A stretch of DNA of 64,000 nt from Candidatus Pacearchaeota archaeon (GTDB lineage: Archaea > Nanobdellota > Nanobdellia > Pacearchaeales > GW2011-AR1), in contig JBAZWF010000001.1 of the NCBI GenBank assembly GCA_041660485.1, forward strand, positions 346,224 to 410,223, in the 5' to 3' direction. Of the stretch, positions 1,999 through 45,774 are shown one piece after another; the first letter of the stretch is position 1; each line of letters begins with the position of its first letter. The notes beneath the pieces are model-generated. The model was not told the origin of the DNA. It searched no databases and saw nothing but the letters and a program-made list of their open reading frames with translations. The translations under genes were made by a program, and so were the position numbers.

Positions 1999-4359
1999 AT
2001 GGTTGAAATTAATTTACAGGAAATAGAAACAAAATGGAAAAATTATTGGGAAAAAGAAAAAATTTATCAGTTTAATCAAAAATCAAAAGCAAAAATATAT
2101 TCAGTTGATACTCCTCCTCCAACTGTTTCAGGAGAAATGCATATTGGGCATGCATGTTCATATTCTCAGCAGGATTTTCTTGTGAGGTATAAACGAATGA
2201 AAGGGTTTAATATATTTTATCCATTTGGAACAGATGATAACGGACTCCCTACAGAAAGATTAGTTGAAAAAACAAAAAATGTAAAAGCAAAAGACATGTC
2301 TCGTTCAGAATTTATAAAAATTTGCAAAGATTTCTTAAAAGAAGTTCGCCCAAAATATATTCAAGACTGGAAAAATATTGGTATAAGCTGTGACTGGGAT
2401 ATTTTATATTCGACAATTGATGATCATTCAAGAAAAATTGCACAATGGTCTTTTTTAGATTTGCATAAGAAAAAAAGAGTTTATCAAAAAGATGCACCTG
2501 CAATGTGGTGCCCAGAATGCAGAACAGGGGTTGCTCAAGTAGAGGTTCAAGATAAAGAAATAGATTCAACATTTAATGATATTATTTTTAAAGTTGCTGG
2601 CCAGCCATTAACAATAGCAACAACTCGTCCAGAATTACTCCCTGCTTGTGTTTCAATTTTTTATCATCCTTCTGATAAACGATATAAAAAATATCTTGGT
2701 AAAAAAGCAAAAGTTCCGCTTTTTAATTTTGAAGTTCCAATTATGGAAGATGAGCGAGTAGATGTTGAAAAAGGAACCGGAATTGTAATGTGTTGCACAT
2801 TTGGAGATCAAACTGATATGGAATGGCAAAAAGCACATAATCTTCCGATAAAACTTGCAATAACAACTGAAGGAAAAATGTCAGAGCTTGCTGGAAAATA
2901 TAAAGACTTGCCAATAAAAGCTGCAAGAAAACAAATTATTGAAGATTTGAAAGCAAATGGTTTATTGACAAAACAAATTCCAATTAAACACGCAGTTAAT
3001 GTTCATGAAAGATGTGGAACAGAAATCGAATTTATAAAAAGCAAGCAATGGTTTGTAAAATATTTAGATTTGAAGAAAGATATGTTAAAATGGGGAAATG
3101 AATTAAATTGGTATCCTGCATTTATGAAACATCGTTATGATAATTGGGTTAAAGGTTTGCAATGGGACTGGCTGATATCAAATCAAAGATATTTTGGAGT
3201 TGCATTTCCAGTATGGTATTGTAAAAAATGCAATGAAGTTATTTTAGCAAATGAAAAAGATCTTCCAGTTGACCCTGAAAAAGATTCTCCGCCTATTAAA
3301 CAATGTCCTAAATGTAAATCCCACGAATTTAAACCTGAAACAGATGTTCTTAATACCTGGTTTACATCTTCAATGACTCCGCAAATAGCAACCTGGCTTA
3401 TGCCAAAGCCAATTCAACCAAAATTATTTCCAATGAGTCTTCGTCCTCAGGCACACGAGATTATTTCATTCTGGTTATTTAATACAATAGTAAAATCAAG
3501 ACTGCATTTTAATAAAAATCCTTGGAAAGATGCTGCATTATCTGGTTTTGTAACATTGCAAGGTGAAAAAATGTCAAAGTCAAAAGGAAATATTATTCGT
3601 CCTCAGGAAATTATGGAAAAATACAGTGCAGATGCAGTAAGATACTGGGCAGCTTCATCAAAACTTGGAGAAGACTTTGATTATCAGGAAAAAGATGTTT
3701 TAACTGGAAAGAAATTTGTTACAAAAATACTTAATGCAACAAATTTTGTTATAACTAATTTAAAATATCAGAAAAAAATGCCGGTTTTAGAAGAAACTGA
3801 CAGAATTTTTTTAATTCAACTAAATAAAACAATTGAAGCATGTGGAAAAGCATTTGAAGAATATAACTATTCGCGTGCAAAAACCGAAGCAGATAATTTC
3901 TTTTGGAAAACATTTGCAGACAATTATCTAGAAATAGTTAAATTCAGAGTTTACAACGGAAATGCAAAGCAAAAAGCTTCTGCAAGCTATACATTATATC
4001 AAGCATTATTAACAATTCTTAAACTAATGGCTCCAATTACTCCATTTATAACAGAAGAATTATACCAATCCCACTTTAGAAAAAATGAAGGTAAAAAATC
4101 AGTGCATCTTGAAAACTGGCCAGAACAGTTTAAAATTAAATCTCAAAAATCAGATGATAAAATTTGGGAAAAGTTAATTGAAATTATTTATCTTGTTCGT
4201 CAGGAAAAATCCAAAGCTCAAAAGTCTATGAAAGCTGAAATAATCCTCACAATTCCAAAAGACGATAAAAAACTTCTTTTGCCAGTTCTTGATGATTTAA
4301 AATCAGTATCAAGTGTTAAAGAACTTAGAGAAGGTAGTTTTAGTGTTGAGTTTCTATAA
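1999..4359 (+). CDS. valS: valyl-tRNA synthetase
   Basis: Class I aaRS signatures PPPTVSGEMHIGHA (HIGH) and KMSKSKGN (KMSKS). The 786-aa size and N-terminal motif fit archaeal ValRS. Confidence 0.85.
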   Translation: MVEINLQEIETKWKNYWEKEKIYQFNQKSKAKIYSVDTPPPTVSGEMHIGHACSYSQQDFLVRYKRMKGFNIFYPFGTDDNGLPTERLVEKTKNVKAKDMSRSEFIKICKDFLKEVRPKYIQDWKNIGISCDWDILYSTIDDHSRKIAQWSFLDLHKKKRVYQKDAPAMWCPECRTGVAQVEVQDKEIDSTFNDIIFKVAGQPLTIATTRPELLPACVSIFYHPSDKRYKKYLGKKAKVPLFNFEVPIMEDERVDVEKGTGIVMCCTFGDQTDMEWQKAHNLPIKLAITTEGKMSELAGKYKDLPIKAARKQIIEDLKANGLLTKQIPIKHAVNVHERCGTEIEFIKSKQWFVKYLDLKKDMLKWGNELNWYPAFMKHRYDNWVKGLQWDWLISNQRYFGVAFPVWYCKKCNEVILANEKDLPVDPEKDSPPIKQCPKCKSHEFKPETDVLNTWFTSSMTPQIATWLMPKPIQPKLFPMSLRPQAHEIISFWLFNTIVKSRLHFNKNPWKDAALSGFVTLQGEKMSKSKGNIIRPQEIMEKYSADAVRYWAASSKLGEDFDYQEKDVLTGKKFVTKILNATNFVITNLKYQKKMPVLEETDRIFLIQLNKTIEACGKAFEEYNYSRAKTEADNFFWKTFADNYLEIVKFRVYNGNAKQKASASYTLYQALLTILKLMAPITPFITEELYQSHFRKNEGKKSVHLENWPEQFKIKSQKSDDKIWEKLIEIIYLVRQEKSKAQKSMKAEIILTIPKDDKKLLLPVLDDLKSVSSVKELREGSFSVEFL

Positions 4360-30293: not shown

Positions 30294-31661
30294 ATGGTAA
30301 TGATTGGACTTGAAATACACGGATATCTCGCAACTAAAGAAAAGCTTTTTTGTAAGTGTAAGAATGAAAATAAAAATATAACACCAAATACAAATATTTG
30401 TCCAATCTGCACAGCTCAGCCAGGTTGCAAACCAATGCCTCCAAATGCAGAAGCAATTAAAAAAATAATTCAAATTGCATTAATGCTTAATAGTAAAGTT
30501 AATACTCATGAAATTGGAAAAAAATTAATCTGGCAGAGAAAACATTATAATTGGCCTGATTTACCAAAAGGATATCAAAATACTATATCTGGAGCTCATG
30601 CCATTCCAGTTGCTGAAAAAGGAAAGTTCTTAGGAATTAATATTACAGAAATGCATTTAGAAGAAGATCCTGCAGCTTGGGACCCTGAAACCGGTTGCAT
30701 AGACTACAATCGTTCAGGCGCACCACTAATAGAAATTGTTACAGAGCCAGAATTTAGCTCATCAGAACAAGTTGCAGACTGGTTAAAAAAACTAATTTTA
30801 ACATTATCATATATTAAAGCAATTGATAAAGAATCGGGAATAAAAGCAGATGTAAATGTCAGCATTCATAATTTATCTGAAAGAACAGAAATAAAAAATA
30901 TGCATTCAATTTCTGAAATAATTAAAGCAATTGAATATGAACTTAAAAGACATTCAAAAGAAAAACCTAAAACAAAAGAAACCCGTCGATGGAATTCTGA
31001 AACCGGAAAAACAGAGCAAATGAGAGAAAAAGAAGCTGCAGCAGATTATCGGTTTATTTCAGACCCGGATTTGCCAGTAATTAAAATATTTGATAAACAA
31101 GTTAAAGAAATTAAAAAACAACTTCCAGAAACTCCTCAAGAAAAACTTGAGAAGATAATTAAAAAATATAAGATAAGTCAGAAAGATGCAGAAGTTTTAA
31201 CAAATAATTTAGAACTTGTTGAATTCTTCGAAGCTGTTTCAGAAAAAATAAATCCACAGTTTGCACTTCATTGGGTTACTGGAGAATTATTAAGAATATT
31301 AAATTATAATAAAACAACTTTAGACCAGGTAAACATAAAACCCGAGCATTTTATAGAGTTAATTCAATATGTTCACGATAAAAAATTAACCGAGCTGAAA
31401 GCAAAGCAAATATTAAATAAATTTATTCCAAGCTCATTTTCACCAAAAAGTGAATTAGAAACCTCAGCGAGAATTTCAGACAAATCTCAGCTTGCAAACT
31501 GGGCAAAAGAAGCAATAAAAAATAATCCTCAGGCAGTCCAAGATTTCAAAGCAGGAAAAGCAGAGGCTCTTAATTTCCTAATAGGAATAATAATGAAACT
31601 TTCAGAGCGCAGAGCAGACTATGCTCTTGCCAAAGACGAGCTGTTAAAGTTGCTGAGGTAA
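30294..31661 (+). CDS. gatB: aspartyl/glutamyl-tRNA amidotransferase subunit B
   Basis: IGLEIHGYL...KLFCKC N-terminus and a C-terminal YqeY-like tail (ALNFLIGIIMK). Confidence 0.85.
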   Translation: MVMIGLEIHGYLATKEKLFCKCKNENKNITPNTNICPICTAQPGCKPMPPNAEAIKKIIQIALMLNSKVNTHEIGKKLIWQRKHYNWPDLPKGYQNTISGAHAIPVAEKGKFLGINITEMHLEEDPAAWDPETGCIDYNRSGAPLIEIVTEPEFSSSEQVADWLKKLILTLSYIKAIDKESGIKADVNVSIHNLSERTEIKNMHSISEIIKAIEYELKRHSKEKPKTKETRRWNSETGKTEQMREKEAAADYRFISDPDLPVIKIFDKQVKEIKKQLPETPQEKLEKIIKKYKISQKDAEVLTNNLELVEFFEAVSEKINPQFALHWVTGELLRILNYNKTTLDQVNIKPEHFIELIQYVHDKKLTELKAKQILNKFIPSSFSPKSELETSARISDKSQLANWAKEAIKNNPQAVQDFKAGKAEALNFLIGIIMKLSERRADYALAKDELLKLLR

Positions 31662-31993
31662 AATTTTATTCTCTCAATCATGCTAGCAAACCTAATTTGT
31701 TCAGATAATTGGGGAATAGAAATTTCTCTGCCATCATCTAATTTTATTCTGCAACAATATTTATTATAATCTGAATCATCTCTATCTCTCATGCCCCATT
31801 GCCCATCTTGATTTTGTAAATACTCTGGAATAATTTCAAGTTCCTCAATAATTCCACAATGAGAATCATGCCAGCACAAAGTATCAGCAACTTTAATAGC
31901 ATTTTCTGGAATATTTTCACTATGTTGATAATTACCAATAGAATGAAACTCGTTAAAAACAACTTTATCCCAAATATTAAATTTAAGTTTCAT
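31619..31993 (-). CDS. hypothetical protein (paralog A flanking the toxin-antitoxin pair)
   Basis: Shares MK..F...D.V and the C-terminal KLDDGR.IS with 32643-32960. Its 3' end overlaps gatB convergently by 43 nt. Confidence 0.45.
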   Translation of the reverse strand: MKLKFNIWDKVVFNEFHSIGNYQHSENIPENAIKVADTLCWHDSHCGIIEELEIIPEYLQNQDGQWGMRDRDDSDYNKYCCRIKLDDGREISIPQLSEQIRFASMIERIKFYLSNFNSSSLARA

Positions 31994-32096
31994 AATAAAG
32001 TAATATTTAATAGCTTTATCAATTTTATTATACTAAATTCATTTTTATATGGAGTGCTCTGCACTTTAAATAAACTGCTGAGATAAAACTTTATTC

Positions 32097-32357
32097 TTAC
32101 TCATAAATCTTATCGTGATGATCAAAATCTAAAATTCTTACAATTCCTCTAAGATAATCTATTTCAAAAGTTAGGACAAAATGCCCAAAATGAATTCTTC
32201 TTTCACCTTTCATGTTTCCTCTTAATGGCTTAAAATGTTCTGGATTTATTTTAAGCTCTTCAATCTTTTTTGTTATTGCTTCAAAAAGAACTTTATTTTT
32301 CTTAGCTATTTTATAGAATTTTCTATCAGCTAATTCAGAAACCTCAATAATATACAT
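32097..32357 (-). CDS. relE: RelE/ParE-family type II toxin
   Basis: 86 aa. Pattern ...KI..L..NP...KPL.G...G..R...G.F.L.F.ID... Lies immediately downstream of an RHH gene. Confidence 0.7.
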   Translation of the reverse strand: MYIIEVSELADRKFYKIAKKNKVLFEAITKKIEELKINPEHFKPLRGNMKGERRIHFGHFVLTFEIDYLRGIVRILDFDHHDKIYE

Positions 32358-32374
32358 AAAAAAACTAAATTAAT

Positions 32375-32596
32375 TTATCTTATATATCTTTTCTTAAAAT
32401 CATCAACTTTAACAAATCTACCTTTTCTAATTGTTTCAAGTTTCATGAGATATTCTTCTCTAACTTTAGGGCTCTCTGCCATTTGAGCTTGTATAAATAT
32501 CTCAACCTGTTTACTCATACTTATACCATTTGCCTTGCAAAACTCAGAAAACTTCTTGTAAACTTCTTCATTTAAGTTAAATGTCTTTAATACCAT
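32375..32596 (-). CDS. ribbon-helix-helix antitoxin
   Basis: 73 aa. The N-terminal beta strand plus helices (KTFNLNEEVYKKFSEFCKANGISMSKQVE) are typical of CopG/RHH proteins. Confidence 0.6.
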   Translation of the reverse strand: MVLKTFNLNEEVYKKFSEFCKANGISMSKQVEIFIQAQMAESPKVREEYLMKLETIRKGRFVKVDDFKKRYIR

Positions 32597-32642
32597 GTTA
32601 TTTAATATTAAATAAGGTTATTTAAATATTTCTAATCAAGTT

Positions 32643-32960
32643 TTAAATTTGCTGAGATGAATGAACTTCTGTTAAATGATATAAACAACGACTAGTTGAT
32701 ATTTTTCTGCCATCATCTAATTTTACTGTGTAACGATAAAAACGTGGATCGTCATCATACAGTACGTTAAATGGTGAATTATCCTCTTCTGATTTAGGAA
32801 ATAATCTCTTCTTACTAGTTATTGTTCCAAAGTTATACTCGATATAACCTCTAGTATGCCCATAAAGCATCTTATAAAAAGAACTATCTTTATCAAGCTC
32901 ATTAATATCCCGCTCATCCCCATAAACACATCTATCTCCTACTCTAAATCCTCGTTTCAT
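32643..32960 (-). CDS. hypothetical protein (paralog B flanking the toxin-antitoxin pair)
   Basis: See 31619-31993. Shares the YRYTVKLDDGRKIS motif. Confidence 0.45.
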   Translation of the reverse strand: MKRGFRVGDRCVYGDERDINELDKDSSFYKMLYGHTRGYIEYNFGTITSKKRLFPKSEEDNSPFNVLYDDDPRFYRYTVKLDDGRKISTSRCLYHLTEVHSSQQI

Positions 32961-33318: not shown

Positions 33319-34452
33319 CTACTTAATCAAACCCAACTCCAAAATAATTGCTCCAATTAAAAGCAAAGAAATAATTAGAATAACTAACCAATTTATTGGT
33401 AGCCAATACTCTGGTTTTCTCTCACTGTATTTTTTAGATTGATAATTCATTAATAAAATTAAAATCCCTGTCAAACCTCCAGAAACAACCCCTCCAATTC
33501 CTAATATATTTTTAAAATCAAGTAAATTAAAAAAACTTATCAGCAAATACAAAGCCAAAGGCAAAATTGAAACTAAAATAAATGCATTTCTTTTATTAAT
33601 TTTCAAATCAGTTTTAAACATATCTCTTAAAGCAAAACTTAAAACAAAAAAACTGGTAGTCATTGTAAAAACTCCGAGGAGTCCAATTAACCTGCCAGAA
33701 GATAAAGTTGCAACTTCTTTAACCTCTATTCCAAAAGCCCCAACAAAAGCAAGTGTAAATAATAAATAAGCAATAATCGGAACAACACTTCCAATAATCA
33801 ATGCTTTTTTTAAATTACTTTTATGATATTCCATTACTCTTCCAACTTCAGGAATTGCACTAAATCCAAGAAGTGAAAATAAAACAACCCCCATTGGAAC
33901 AAAAAACATATTCCAATTATTATAAGAAAGATTTTCAGCTTTTAAATTAGGAAAAAAATAGAAAAATATTCCTATAATTATAATTAAAACCAAAAAAACT
34001 CCATAAGATTCAACTTTTTTCAAACCTCTAAGCCCTTCTCTTAATAACAAAGTCATAGCTAGCCAGAACAAAATTCCAAAAATAATTGCATATTGTCCGC
34101 TTCCAAATATTACATAAGATAAACTCTGCCCTTCACCAATTAAATATGCAATTAAAGCTGCATAAATTCCAAAAACCATTGCAAACACCATTAACCATTT
34201 TCCAAATTTGCCAAGATATTTTTCAGCATAACCTGTTAACTGATGATTTCCATGAGTTCTAAGCATTACTTCACCCATATACAAATGAACAAAAAGCATT
34301 AAAGCTCCAAGAATCAAGAGCCAAAATACTCCAATTAAAAATCCAGATTTTGCAAATACATAAGGCAAACCTAAAATTCCTGCTCCAATTATAGTTCCTA
34401 TTAAAGTAAAACTTCCTGCTAGCAATGTTTTTCCTCTCACTCTTTTTTCCAT
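33319..34452 (-). CDS. amino acid permease (Trp/Tyr-permease-like family)
   Basis: About 11 TM helices. N-terminal GTIIGAGILGLPY motif. Confidence 0.6.
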   Translation of the reverse strand: MEKRVRGKTLLAGSFTLIGTIIGAGILGLPYVFAKSGFLIGVFWLLILGALMLFVHLYMGEVMLRTHGNHQLTGYAEKYLGKFGKWLMVFAMVFGIYAALIAYLIGEGQSLSYVIFGSGQYAIIFGILFWLAMTLLLREGLRGLKKVESYGVFLVLIIIIGIFFYFFPNLKAENLSYNNWNMFFVPMGVVLFSLLGFSAIPEVGRVMEYHKSNLKKALIIGSVVPIIAYLLFTLAFVGAFGIEVKEVATLSSGRLIGLLGVFTMTTSFFVLSFALRDMFKTDLKINKRNAFILVSILPLALYLLISFFNLLDFKNILGIGGVVSGGLTGILILLMNYQSKKYSERKPEYWLPINWLVILIISLLLIGAIILELGLIK

Positions 34453-34471
34453 TTTAAAATTAATCTTTTAT

Positions 34472-34580
34472 GGGTCTAAGAGGATTTGAACACTTCAAAA
34501 CAAAGTTTTGAACGTCGCCAAGAATTTTATTCTTGTGCGCTTACAATTTATTTAAATTGTAAGGTGAAAATCCTCTACCC
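34472..34580. ncRNA. 109-nt four-way-junction (cloverleaf-topology) element built on a copy of the tRNA-Arg 3' end
   Basis: The closing stem pairs 34472-34487 with 34568-34580 (13 bp with a 3-nt bulge). It encloses three perfect hairpins at 34494-34512 (8 bp), 34519-34535 (7 bp) and 34540-34563 (10 bp). All pairs are Watson-Crick. Confidence 0.55.
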
Positions 34581-34587
34581 TTTTTAA

Positions 34588-34661
34588 TGGGTCTAAGAGG
34601 ATTTGAACCCCTATCGCCCGGTCCGAAGCCGAGAGCTCTATCCAGGTTAAGCTATAGACCC
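34588..34661 (-). tRNA. tRNA-Arg(UCG)
   Basis: Acceptor stem GGGUCUA/UAGACCC, anticodon loop CUUCGGA, T arm AGGGG-UUCAAAU-CCUCU, discriminator A. Confidence 0.85.
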
Positions 34662-40080: not shown

Positions 40081-40269
40081 ATGAATAAATGGGTTGAAAT
40101 CCTCTTAGGATTAATCTTGGTTTTAGGTGCAGTATTCCTTGTTTTTGGAAATATGACACCGACCTGGGCACAAGCTACTTGGGTAGTACTAAAGGGCGGA
40201 ATCGTATGGGGAGTTTTCTTTGTAGGTTTATTATTCCTTATGCTAGGAATAAGTGACTTGAAAGGATAA
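40081..40269 (+). CDS. small two-TM membrane protein
   Basis: 62 aa with a clean hydrophobic pattern. Preferred over the overlapping antisense ORF 39957-40289. Confidence 0.4.
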   Translation: MNKWVEILLGLILVLGAVFLVFGNMTPTWAQATWVVLKGGIVWGVFFVGLLFLMLGISDLKG

Positions 40270-40416: not shown

Positions 40417-40850
40417 TATAGATTATAATAAACTACTATCTATCAAAAAAACAATGGGCCACCGCACCATAAATGGTGCGGTTTGTGACAGGCCCTTGTT
40501 TTTAGATTCCCAAAAAAATTCGCATAAACAAGCAACCGCAACATAAATATTGCGGATTTTTTTTAGGATTAATAAAAAGTTTAGATTCAACATTTCAAGA
40601 TAATATAATAAGGAATTTTGCTTGGCAAAATTCCCAATCAAAGAGCCGAGCCGAGAAATTTTGCAAGGGCTAATTAAATATACTCGCGAGCGAAGTTTCG
40701 AGTAGAAGCGAAGCGATATTAATTAAACATACCATATCTTTGCCTAACTTTAAGTTGTTTAAATATAGATTAATTAGTTTACACAAATTTCAATCAAACA
40801 ATATCTTTAGATGCCACATTTCCAAATAATATAATATCTAGCATAGCTAG
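40417..40850 (+). other. array of promoter-like TAGAT/AT-rich boxes, each followed by a hairpin (candidate small RNA genes)
   Basis: Boxes at 40417-40433, 40501-40520, 40580-40611 and 40806-40836. Hairpins at 40456-40495 (followed by TTGTTTTT), 40536-40555 (followed by T8), 40612-40634 and 40838-40850. Confidence 0.35.
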
Positions 40851-45320: not shown

Positions 45321-45662
45321 ATGGTAGACAACTCAATTTATTCTAAAATTGAATATGGAGATGCAATTGTAGCAAAAAGAGAAATTCTTGAAATGCAAAG
45401 AAATTTGCTTAACACAATGCAAAAAATTGAATCTTACAAAGAGTTAAGAAAAAAAGAGTTAATGCTTAAACTAAAACTTAAAAATAATTTAAAAGAAATT
45501 CGTGAAAGATTTATTAAAATTAATAACCACGTACCACAAACAAAAGGCATAAAAAAGCCAAAAATAATTCACGCCAAAATGCGGGAAAAAGAGGTAAAGA
45601 GGAATCTATCAATTGAAGAGCAGCTCCTTGACATACAACAAAAGTTAAGCGAGCTGCACTGA
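45321..45662 (+). CDS. hypothetical coiled-coil protein
   Basis: ATG at 45321 lies 1 nt after the upstream stop, so the track start at 45294 is probably over-extended. Confidence 0.4.
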   Translation: MVDNSIYSKIEYGDAIVAKREILEMQRNLLNTMQKIESYKELRKKELMLKLKLKNNLKEIRERFIKINNHVPQTKGIKKPKIIHAKMREKEVKRNLSIEEQLLDIQQKLSELH

Positions 45663-45774
45663 TTCCTCTTAAAAATATTAATTCTTAGGATTAATAATAT
45701 ATTTTTACCAAACTTAAATAGATTATATTGAAAATTAATCAGTTTAGATTTTACTTTAGTAATAATTTTAGAGT

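Follow-up and report, generated by a model that had tools for sequence, protein, structure and literature searches.

What kind of element separates a tRNA-Arg(UCG) gene from an amino-acid permease gene in a Pacearchaeota genome, and is its predicted four-way junction the mark of a functional RNA or of events at the DNA level? The element lies in the window, by which we mean the whole stretch of DNA analyzed here, 64 kb in length. The window is AT-rich (26-32% GC) and has an archaeal gene content, including MetRS, GatB, an archaeal-type ProRS, and a DHH protein. At the locus, the plus strand encodes ProRS and a trypsin-like protease, and the minus strand carries, in this order, tRNA-Arg(UCG), the element, and the permease. 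The tRNA gene (34588..34661, minus strand) is intron-less, has no encoded CCA, and belongs to sequence "type A"; it is reported by ARAGORN and matches Rfam RF00005 with 59.3 bits. The permease (33319..34452, minus strand), considered here as context only, belongs to the aromatic amino-acid (Trp/Tyr) family and is not arginine-related. Its ATG, at 34452, is located 18 nt past the element; the original prediction had the order on the minus strand right and gave this distance as 19 nt. The neighbors of the cassette in the window are syntenic housekeeping genes. A second, independent contig from the Logan collection carries a locus identical to that of the window, so the element is no obvious assembly artefact. 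When the permease and the protease were looked up by exact match, only this further contig was retrieved and no strain variant of the locus, and a first scan of genome contigs using a single protein as query gave no match.

Direct and inverted copies of the T-loop and 3' end of the tRNA are nested in this region, together with two unrelated palindromes (hairpins hp1 and hp2). The segment TGGGTCTAAGAGGATTTGAAC forms an exact 21-nt direct repeat at two sites of the window, 34471-34491 and 34588-34608, as had been claimed, and 0/100 shuffles gave a match, even at 3 mismatches allowed. The copy at 34588-34608 is the 3' part of tRNA-Arg(UCG) on the minus strand. The other, distal copy accordingly spans the T-loop, the 3' strand of the T-stem, the 3' strand of the acceptor, and the discriminator. 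The full repeat is 26 nt long with 1 mismatch (34466-34491 and 34583-34608) and reaches 5 nt beyond the tRNA 3' end; as this trailer is part of the repeat, the duplicated unit is DNA, not mature tRNA. The two copies are 117 nt apart, and the 96 bp in between hold no ORF.

Read along the minus strand, the tRNA discriminator is followed by a 7-nt spacer, UUAAAAA (34581..34587), with no oligo-T run directly after the tRNA, and then by an inverted partial copy of the tRNA 3' end, GGGT---AGAGGATTTtcACC (34563..34580). This copy corresponds to the above 21-nt segment in reverse complement, minus 3 nt (CTA) and with 2 mismatches; its existence had been recognized, but it is larger than the 34567-34580 first assigned to it. 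It provides the 5' strand of the closing stem of the element, the 3' strand being the direct copy (34466..34491, of which 21 nt are exact and the 5 nt of trailer contain 1 mismatch), and it would pair equally well with the genuine tRNA 3' end or with the distal copy. Three hairpins, all on the minus strand, lie between these two strands. In the predicted folds, hp1 (34540..34563) is a perfect AT-rich palindrome of 10 bp, CTTACAATTT / AAATTGTAAG, with a 4-nt loop. The second one, hp2 (34516..34539), consists of CAAGAAT/ATTCTTG and a 3-bp GC clamp beyond a 1-nt bulge, and reads CGC-CAAGAAT-TTT-ATTCTTG-T-GCG on the plus strand, while hp3 (34494..34512) is an 8-bp palindrome with T-loop-like arms, GTTCAAAAC / GTTTTGAAG. 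No partial copies flank either of the remaining two tRNAs of the window. At 40093-40110, 18 nt inside a coding sequence form an inverted near-copy of the tRNA end, which was judged a chance match.

From 34580 to 34471 on the minus strand, the element is predicted to fold into a four-way junction with an MFE of -41.1 kcal/mol (z = -8.1, 0/200 shuffles as stable), which bears out the folding that had been anticipated. The predicted fold reproduces the closing stem, GGGU/ACCC plus AGAGGAUUU/AAAUCCUCU with a 3-nt UAG bulge, and hairpins of 10, 7, and 8 bp, the 7-bp one adding 3 pairs past its 1-nt bulge. With the discriminator, the element measures 110 nt, not 109 nt. All predicted pairs (44/44) are Watson-Crick, again as claimed, with 0 G-U pairs on either strand. 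In a sliding-window scan, this is the most stable 120-nt segment of all 64 kb (GC-corrected z = -5.0). The plus strand is predicted to fold as well (-41.6, z = -6.9), and so is single-stranded DNA (z = -7.9). The absence of G-U pairs and the equal predicted stability of both strands point to DNA palindromes rather than to an RNA under selection and, together with the trailer inside the repeat, they argue for a DNA-level origin of the fold. The original observation is thereby confirmed, and the interpretation attached to it, whose anatomy is right, is partly supported.

The gene order ProRS, protease, tRNA-Arg(UCG), permease is widely kept in Pacearchaeota and Woesearchaeota MAGs. The loci with the closest permeases (L002, L007, and L008; 70-72% identity) lack a cassette, and their tRNA-Arg is of the other sequence type and lies on the opposite strand. 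L004 and L005 (permease 66%) carry the tRNA type of the window followed by one simple hairpin only, and this hairpin and the window have GATTTTCACCTTA in common. In the window, this 13-nt trailer motif stands after the proximal copy of the repeat (a short match to L004, E = 0.6), and CCCATAAA, which stands after the distal copy, likewise gives a short match to L004. A simple attL/attR pair predicts the ancestral trailer after the distal copy, and the proximal position of the 13-nt motif may count against the integration reading developed below. In L089/L090 and L114, the identical 21-mer is found within an intron-bearing tRNA and the cassette is absent; a mini T-loop palindrome comes immediately after the tRNA in L114. 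An empty site would read ...TTAGACCCA joined straight to TAAAAGATT. As judged from the loci compared, the four-way junction is lineage-specific: the conservation looked for in related genomes did not materialize, the whole junction being absent at orthologous sites and only hp2 having homologues. The whole junction is known from one genome only, with no homologues on which covariation could be tested.

A comparable layout recurs at tRNA-Arg(UCG) in several Pacearchaeota/Woesearchaeota lineages. It comprises a spacer of ~7 nt, an inverted copy of the T-loop/3' end, at least one hairpin, and a direct copy of the 3' end at +80 to +99, and it is found in the window, L006/L009, L049, L063, and L071, which are non-sister lineages. 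In L006/L009 the inverted copy lies at +7, the same 7-nt spacing as in the window, and the direct copy at +80; the latter is at +95 in L049 and at +99 in L071. L070 (+40) and L119 represent reduced forms, with a hairpin and a direct copy and no clear inverted copy. In every case, the partial copies track the local tRNA sequence: in L006, CTAGTAGGCC is present in tRNA and copy alike, and in L119 the tRNA has CTAGCAGGCC and the copy has CTAGCAAGCC. L049 carries two tandem cassettes, which share a 4-nt acceptor-strand insertion and differ in their central hairpins, an arrangement expected from repeated insertion at one attachment site; acceptor-strand insertions of 2-4 nt are seen in the copies of L049 and L071. 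Mirror-image cassettes occur at the tRNA 5' end in L052, L063, and L071.

All cassettes seen are flanked by the tRNA on one side and, downstream, by an ORF of the same orientation. Those of L049, L063, and L119 come after the tRNA and point away from the permease, which ties them to the tRNA and not to the transporter. This arrangement and the Trp/Tyr family of the permease speak against the suggested regulation of the permease gene. The related proposal of a tRNA-mimicking permease leader fares no better, as the tRNA models miss the element and the orthologous site of the nearest relatives lacks it. ARAGORN and Rfam reported no tRNA for 34471-34580, even at E <= 10, and only 34588-34661 scored. 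With both gathering and permissive thresholds, tRNA was the only Rfam family matched in the window, L071, and L006, and the mascRNA model did not detect the element.

At the sequence level, L049, L063, and L071 have cassettes with no relation to that of the window: in them a long hairpin, closed by the T-stem, replaces the T-loop of the partial 3' copy. In the Woesearchaeota-type cassette, 11/24 pairs show a compensatory change and some are G-U (n=5 related sequences); a covariance model of it recovered its training sequences alone, and the strand preference of these cassettes is inconsistent. The sole interior part of the window element with homologues elsewhere is hp2, which is found in L006/L009 and L119, abutting their partial tRNA copy. 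Across the 3 sequences, 9/9 pairs of hp2 are kept, with 1 compensatory change (A-U to G-C), and 182/500 shuffles are as good, so that with this number of sequences the result is not significant. Local alignment of the interior to L006 beats 299/300 shuffles in one orientation, with a score of 25 vs 22 in the other orientation, too close to call the interior inverted relative to L006. As L006 and L119 are not sister to the window lineage, hp2 is either an old feature with frequent losses or one that moves horizontally. The L006 cassette does not close into a junction, L119 has only hp2 and an unpaired 3' copy, and the cassettes of the relatives lack the acceptor-like helix of the window element.

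Neither the window nor any related locus has an integrase, casposase, or other mobile-element gene beside the cassette, and no Cas1 or PolB gene is present in the neighborhood. That no recombinase gene or free element was found in these searches is a point against insertion. When searched by blastn-short against the window and 90 related loci, the element returned only itself, the tRNA, and matches of 13-16 nt. The multiple copies anticipated for a MITE are thus missing from the 64-kb window, and the 90 related loci yield hp2 only. Several dispersed copies of hp1-hp3 and GGGTAGAGGATTTTCACC would support a MITE or mobile cassette. Viral contigs gave 0 matches for the 21-mer, the hp1-hp2 arrangement, the junction of hp2 with the tRNA copy, and the Woesearchaeota-type motif. 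A looser hp2 pattern had 20 matches, which were unrelated and attributed to chance, and the type-B tRNA end matched solely phage tRNA genes. A single scan of metagenome contigs with the 21-mer detected 6 loci, none with two copies, 4/6 being bacterial tRNAs.

How does the element compare with known systems? The T-arm/3' end of tRNA genes is a classical target of archaeal integrases. Partial tRNA copies beside intact tRNA genes are a known signature of the integration of archaeal elements, and PYG1 of Pyrococcus yayanosii has 44-bp repeats (PMC9897764). As in such att-repeat integration (PMC9897764), a complete tRNA is accompanied by a direct copy of its 3' T-arm/acceptor part, at a locus with inversions. 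The differences are that 96 bp lie between the repeats here vs 9-23 kb, with no genes and no integrase, that the element has an extra inverted copy 7 nt past the tRNA and 5 nt of trailer in the repeat, and that the ancestral-looking trailer stands after the proximal copy in the window. The originally proposed att scar therefore survives as a DNA cassette bounded by tRNA ends and recurring patchily, but not in its classical form, given the missing integrase, the 96 bp, and the proximal trailer. [quoted passage not shown] Their target duplication is ~14-15 bp, with a tRNA overlap of only ~5 bp (PMC5137440). The element resembles a casposon in its direct duplication overlapping the tRNA 3' end and in an insert bounded by inverted repeats. 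It falls outside this class in that its repeat covers 21-26 bp from the T-loop onward and its inverted repeats are copies of the tRNA end itself, with no Cas1/PolB seen.

MITEs and small palindromic intergenic repeats, such as the Neisseria Correia elements and REP/BIME, are ~100 bp long, non-coding, and located near gene starts, and have terminal inverted repeats and stable stem-loops. The window element is likewise ~100 bp, non-coding, and intergenic, possibly with a TAAAA flanking duplication, and it has terminal inverted repeats of 13 bp plus 3 more pairs with a 3-nt indel. Unlike a MITE, it is single-copy in the 64 kb, has no match in the collections searched, and ends in copies of the neighboring tRNA that vary with the local tRNA of each lineage. 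Of the earlier MITE-like proposal, the tRNA-like terminal inverted repeat thus stands and the multi-copy nature does not, no other copy being present in the 64 kb. tRNA-like processing signals in mRNAs include the plant mitochondrial t-elements and mascRNA/MALAT1. Like these, the element would have an acceptor-like helix with a discriminator, located after another RNA and ahead of an ORF, and this helix may in principle be cleavable by RNase P/RNase Z; unlike them, it has no equivalent of the T-loop or D-arm and is not conserved. The cassette is a variant of what is known from the 3' ends of tRNA genes, where gene fragments and palindromic cassettes occur.

Our preferred reading, to which we assign a probability of roughly one half, is that the element is a product of recombination or insertion at a tRNA 3'-end hot spot, thus a miniature non-autonomous cassette or scar that arose at the DNA level. 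From its composition, it looks like a non-coding "tRNA-end cassette" in which AT-rich palindromes are bracketed by inverted and direct partial copies of tRNA-Arg(UCG). Recombination or insertion at the T-arm/3' end of the tRNA would have left either a non-autonomous insertion cassette of miniature size or a larger element stripped down to a remnant. Local fold-back duplications may afterwards have produced the T-loop-like palindromes, and the four-way junction would be a by-product of nested inverted repeats. Read-through from the putative tRNA promoter would then give a very stable 3' trailer or 5' leader. The restriction to one tRNA, the patchy distribution, the tandem accretion, and the block inversions described below suggest that such recombination or insertion at the T-arm/3' end was repeated. 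The structure bears no sign of selection, and we infer that the junction lacks a function. If the preferred reading is true, the element in itself amounts to a curiosity, palindromes combined with a fragment of a tRNA gene, and serves as a caution that spectacular predicted folds beside tRNA genes can stem from nested DNA repeats.

Replication template switching also predicts the direct-inverted-direct order, an observation that weighs against insertion. It would involve a fold-back duplication without any mobile element: a stall at the palindromic T-arm, a snap-back generating the inverted copy, and a re-alignment generating the direct copy, with smaller such events leading to hp3. The order of tRNA 3' end, inverted copy 7 nt on, and direct copy fits this scheme, as do hp3, which is a direct plus inverted T-loop-like pair beside the direct copy, the match of all copies to the local tRNA, the duplication of the trailer, the failure to find a recombinase gene or free element, and the mini T-loop palindrome straight after the tRNA in L114. 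Such an origin is nonetheless unlikely in our estimate, as it does not explain hp1 and hp2, which are unrelated to the tRNA, the occurrence of hp2 in both the window and the L006/L119 clade, the similar 80-99-nt spacing across independent lineages, the tandem cassettes of L049, or the restriction to tRNA-Arg(UCG). We also hold it doubtful that the element is a functional structured RNA co-transcribed with tRNA-Arg, acting as a trailer or leader that insulates, terminates, or processes read-through between tRNA and mRNA. For example, the 13-bp stem with its discriminator could mimic an acceptor/T minihelix for RNase Z/RNase P, by which the permease mRNA would have its 5' end defined or protected. 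The exceptional predicted stability favors such an RNA, as do the plausible read-through in the absence of oligo-T after the tRNA, the 9/9 pairs of hp2 kept in three lineages with one compensatory change, and the 11/24 compensatory pairs, with some G-U, of the Woesearchaeota-type cassette. The constant place of the cassettes, in all cases seen between the tRNA and an ORF of the same orientation, is compatible with a role at the RNA level and is, to that extent, an observation against our preferred reading; so are the perfect hairpins and the perfect 21-nt repeat, which could reflect selection. The tracking of the local tRNA by the copies would mean concerted evolution or selection. On the other side, the four-way junction occurs in one genome only, the L006 cassette has no junction closure and L119 merely hp2 with an unpaired 3' copy, the window shows zero G-U pairs and full strand symmetry, and the copies of L049 and L071 have 2-4-nt insertions in the acceptor strand. 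Moreover, the covariation statistics are weak (182/500 shuffles as good at n=3 for hp2, and five related sequences for the Woesearchaeota type), the Woesearchaeota type shows no consistent strand preference, and no Rfam family matches. A scan for sigma-70 promoters and terminators was uninformative, the host being an archaeon.

A broader version of an RNA-level role, improbable in our view, is that the cassettes at Pacearchaeota/Woesearchaeota tRNA-Arg(UCG) genes form a previously undescribed class of co-transcribed "tRNA-end modules", made up of an anti-T-loop segment, hairpin(s), and a 3'-end mimic, in which selection keeps the match to the local tRNA. They would act, for example, as a decoy or processing site parting tRNA from mRNA, or as a switch between the real and the mimic 3' end, and the window element would be their most elaborate member. 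Finally, the element might be a piece of a tRNA gene that is split, permuted, or interrupted by a T-loop intron. The distal copy (positions 53-73) would then serve as the actual 3' exon, and removal of the hairpins by the splicing endonuclease would allow its ligation to a 5' part, either the body of this very tRNA or a piece encoded elsewhere. Split tRNA genes and bulge-helix-bulge introns are known from Nanoarchaeum equitans and Caldivirga. The window lineage belongs to the phylum of Nanoarchaeum, the tRNA-Arg(UCG) of its relatives often bears an intron (17-142 nt), the distal copy, beside a structured flank, reproduces a tRNA 3' end perfectly down to the discriminator, and a 213-nt predicted fold pairs the tRNA 5' strand with this copy. 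Yet no bulge-helix-bulge (3-4-3) motif can be drawn at the putative junctions, where there is only a 3-nt bulge beside a 4-bp helix without a partner bulge and the putative junction helix would be 6 bp; the introns of the relatives are all at the canonical 37/38 site; no 5' tRNA piece is present in the 64-kb window; and L049 and L071 have damaged equivalents of the copy. The fragment is limited to positions 53-73 and adjoins an intact, intron-less tRNA, so that splicing would give the same product, and we regard this explanation as highly improbable. The interior does not appear to be a displaced tRNA intron either: the introns of L002, L007, L089, and L114 have no convincing similarity to it, beyond a short GAT(A/T)(T/C)CAC(C/T)TT resemblance.

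The part most worth follow-up is the pattern in DPANN archaea, where cassettes recur at tRNA-Arg(UCG) and this tRNA gene flips its orientation. One tRNA gene of these ultra-small genomes displays four instabilities, namely orientation flips, sequence-type swaps, intron gain or loss, and self-derived cassettes, which make it a candidate target for a recombination activity or a tiny mobile element directed at the T-arm. Identifying such an activity would enlarge the very sparse knowledge of Pacearchaeota mobile DNA; should the cassettes turn out to function as RNAs, they would constitute a new type of archaeal tRNA-linked cis element. Among the ~60 tRNA-Arg(UCG) genes beside permease homologues, the tRNA is on the same strand as the permease in 38 loci and on the opposite one in 22. 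Introns are present in 16 of these genes, and the distribution of the two tRNA sequence types is at odds with the permease tree. These comparisons mark the tRNA block, with the cassette where present, as invertible in evolution, its neighbors staying the same in both orientations, and the locus as recombinationally active. In L006 and L119, the tRNA block stands in opposite orientations at 80% permease identity.

An aromatic amino-acid permease is adjoined by tRNA-Arg(UCG) throughout Pacearchaeota and Woesearchaeota (relatives' loci L002–L091; positions 34588–34661 of the window). At the loci of permease homologues, the tRNA gene lies on the same strand as the permease in 38 cases and on the opposite strand in 22, and it carries an intron of 17–142 nt at the canonical site in 16 loci. 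Two sequence types of this tRNA are observed, whose distribution is discordant with the permease tree.

A conserved cassette of ~88 nt is present in three of the relatives' loci: L049 (about 2109–2293, minus strand), where it forms a tandem duplicate, L063 (1961–2047 and 2238–2326) and L071 (2339–2426). Compensatory changes are found in 11 of its 24 pairs among five related sequences, and a search of Rfam returned no match to it. The cassette is made up of a partial 3′ tRNA copy with a long hairpin in place of the T-loop.

Mirror-image cassettes occur on the 5′ side of the gene, about 53 nt upstream of tRNA-Arg, in L052, L063 and L071. Their order is a direct copy of tRNA positions 1–15, a hairpin and an inverted-like copy immediately before tRNA-Arg. 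L063 carries an additional 48-nt copy of the 5′ part of the tRNA, followed by an insert of the same kind.

Other features accompany tRNA-Arg in some relatives. Directly upstream of the intron-bearing tRNA-Arg of L087 and L088, the usual protease gene is replaced by a free-standing ORF of the homing-endonuclease-type LAGLIDADG_3 family (1179–1916 and 1146–1883, respectively), which may introduce double-strand breaks at the tRNA-Arg locus. Between the protease gene and tRNA-Arg of L089 (about 1930–2200), the motif ATCCTGCCATATTCTGCCTTATTTTAATG... is present in three imperfect copies, each roughly 90–100 nt.

In the window, four small ORFs lie on the minus strand between GatB and the permease (31619–32960); one of them encodes a ParE-family toxin (32097–32357, minus strand), and two, of 105 and 124 aa, resemble each other. 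As the permease directly abuts GatB in L004 and L091, this segment has the appearance of an insert that is specific to the strain and carries a toxin-antitoxin module.

An 18-nt near-copy of the tRNA-Arg T-loop/T-stem, with one mismatch, is found on the opposite strand at 40093–40110 of the window, within the start of an ORF (MNKWVEILLGL...); it was judged a chance match. Two further intergenic folds of the window, at 40441–40560 and 45586–45705, are unusually stable (z about −6 each) and have no match in Rfam. In the former, GC-rich hairpins precede U-runs and resemble terminators.
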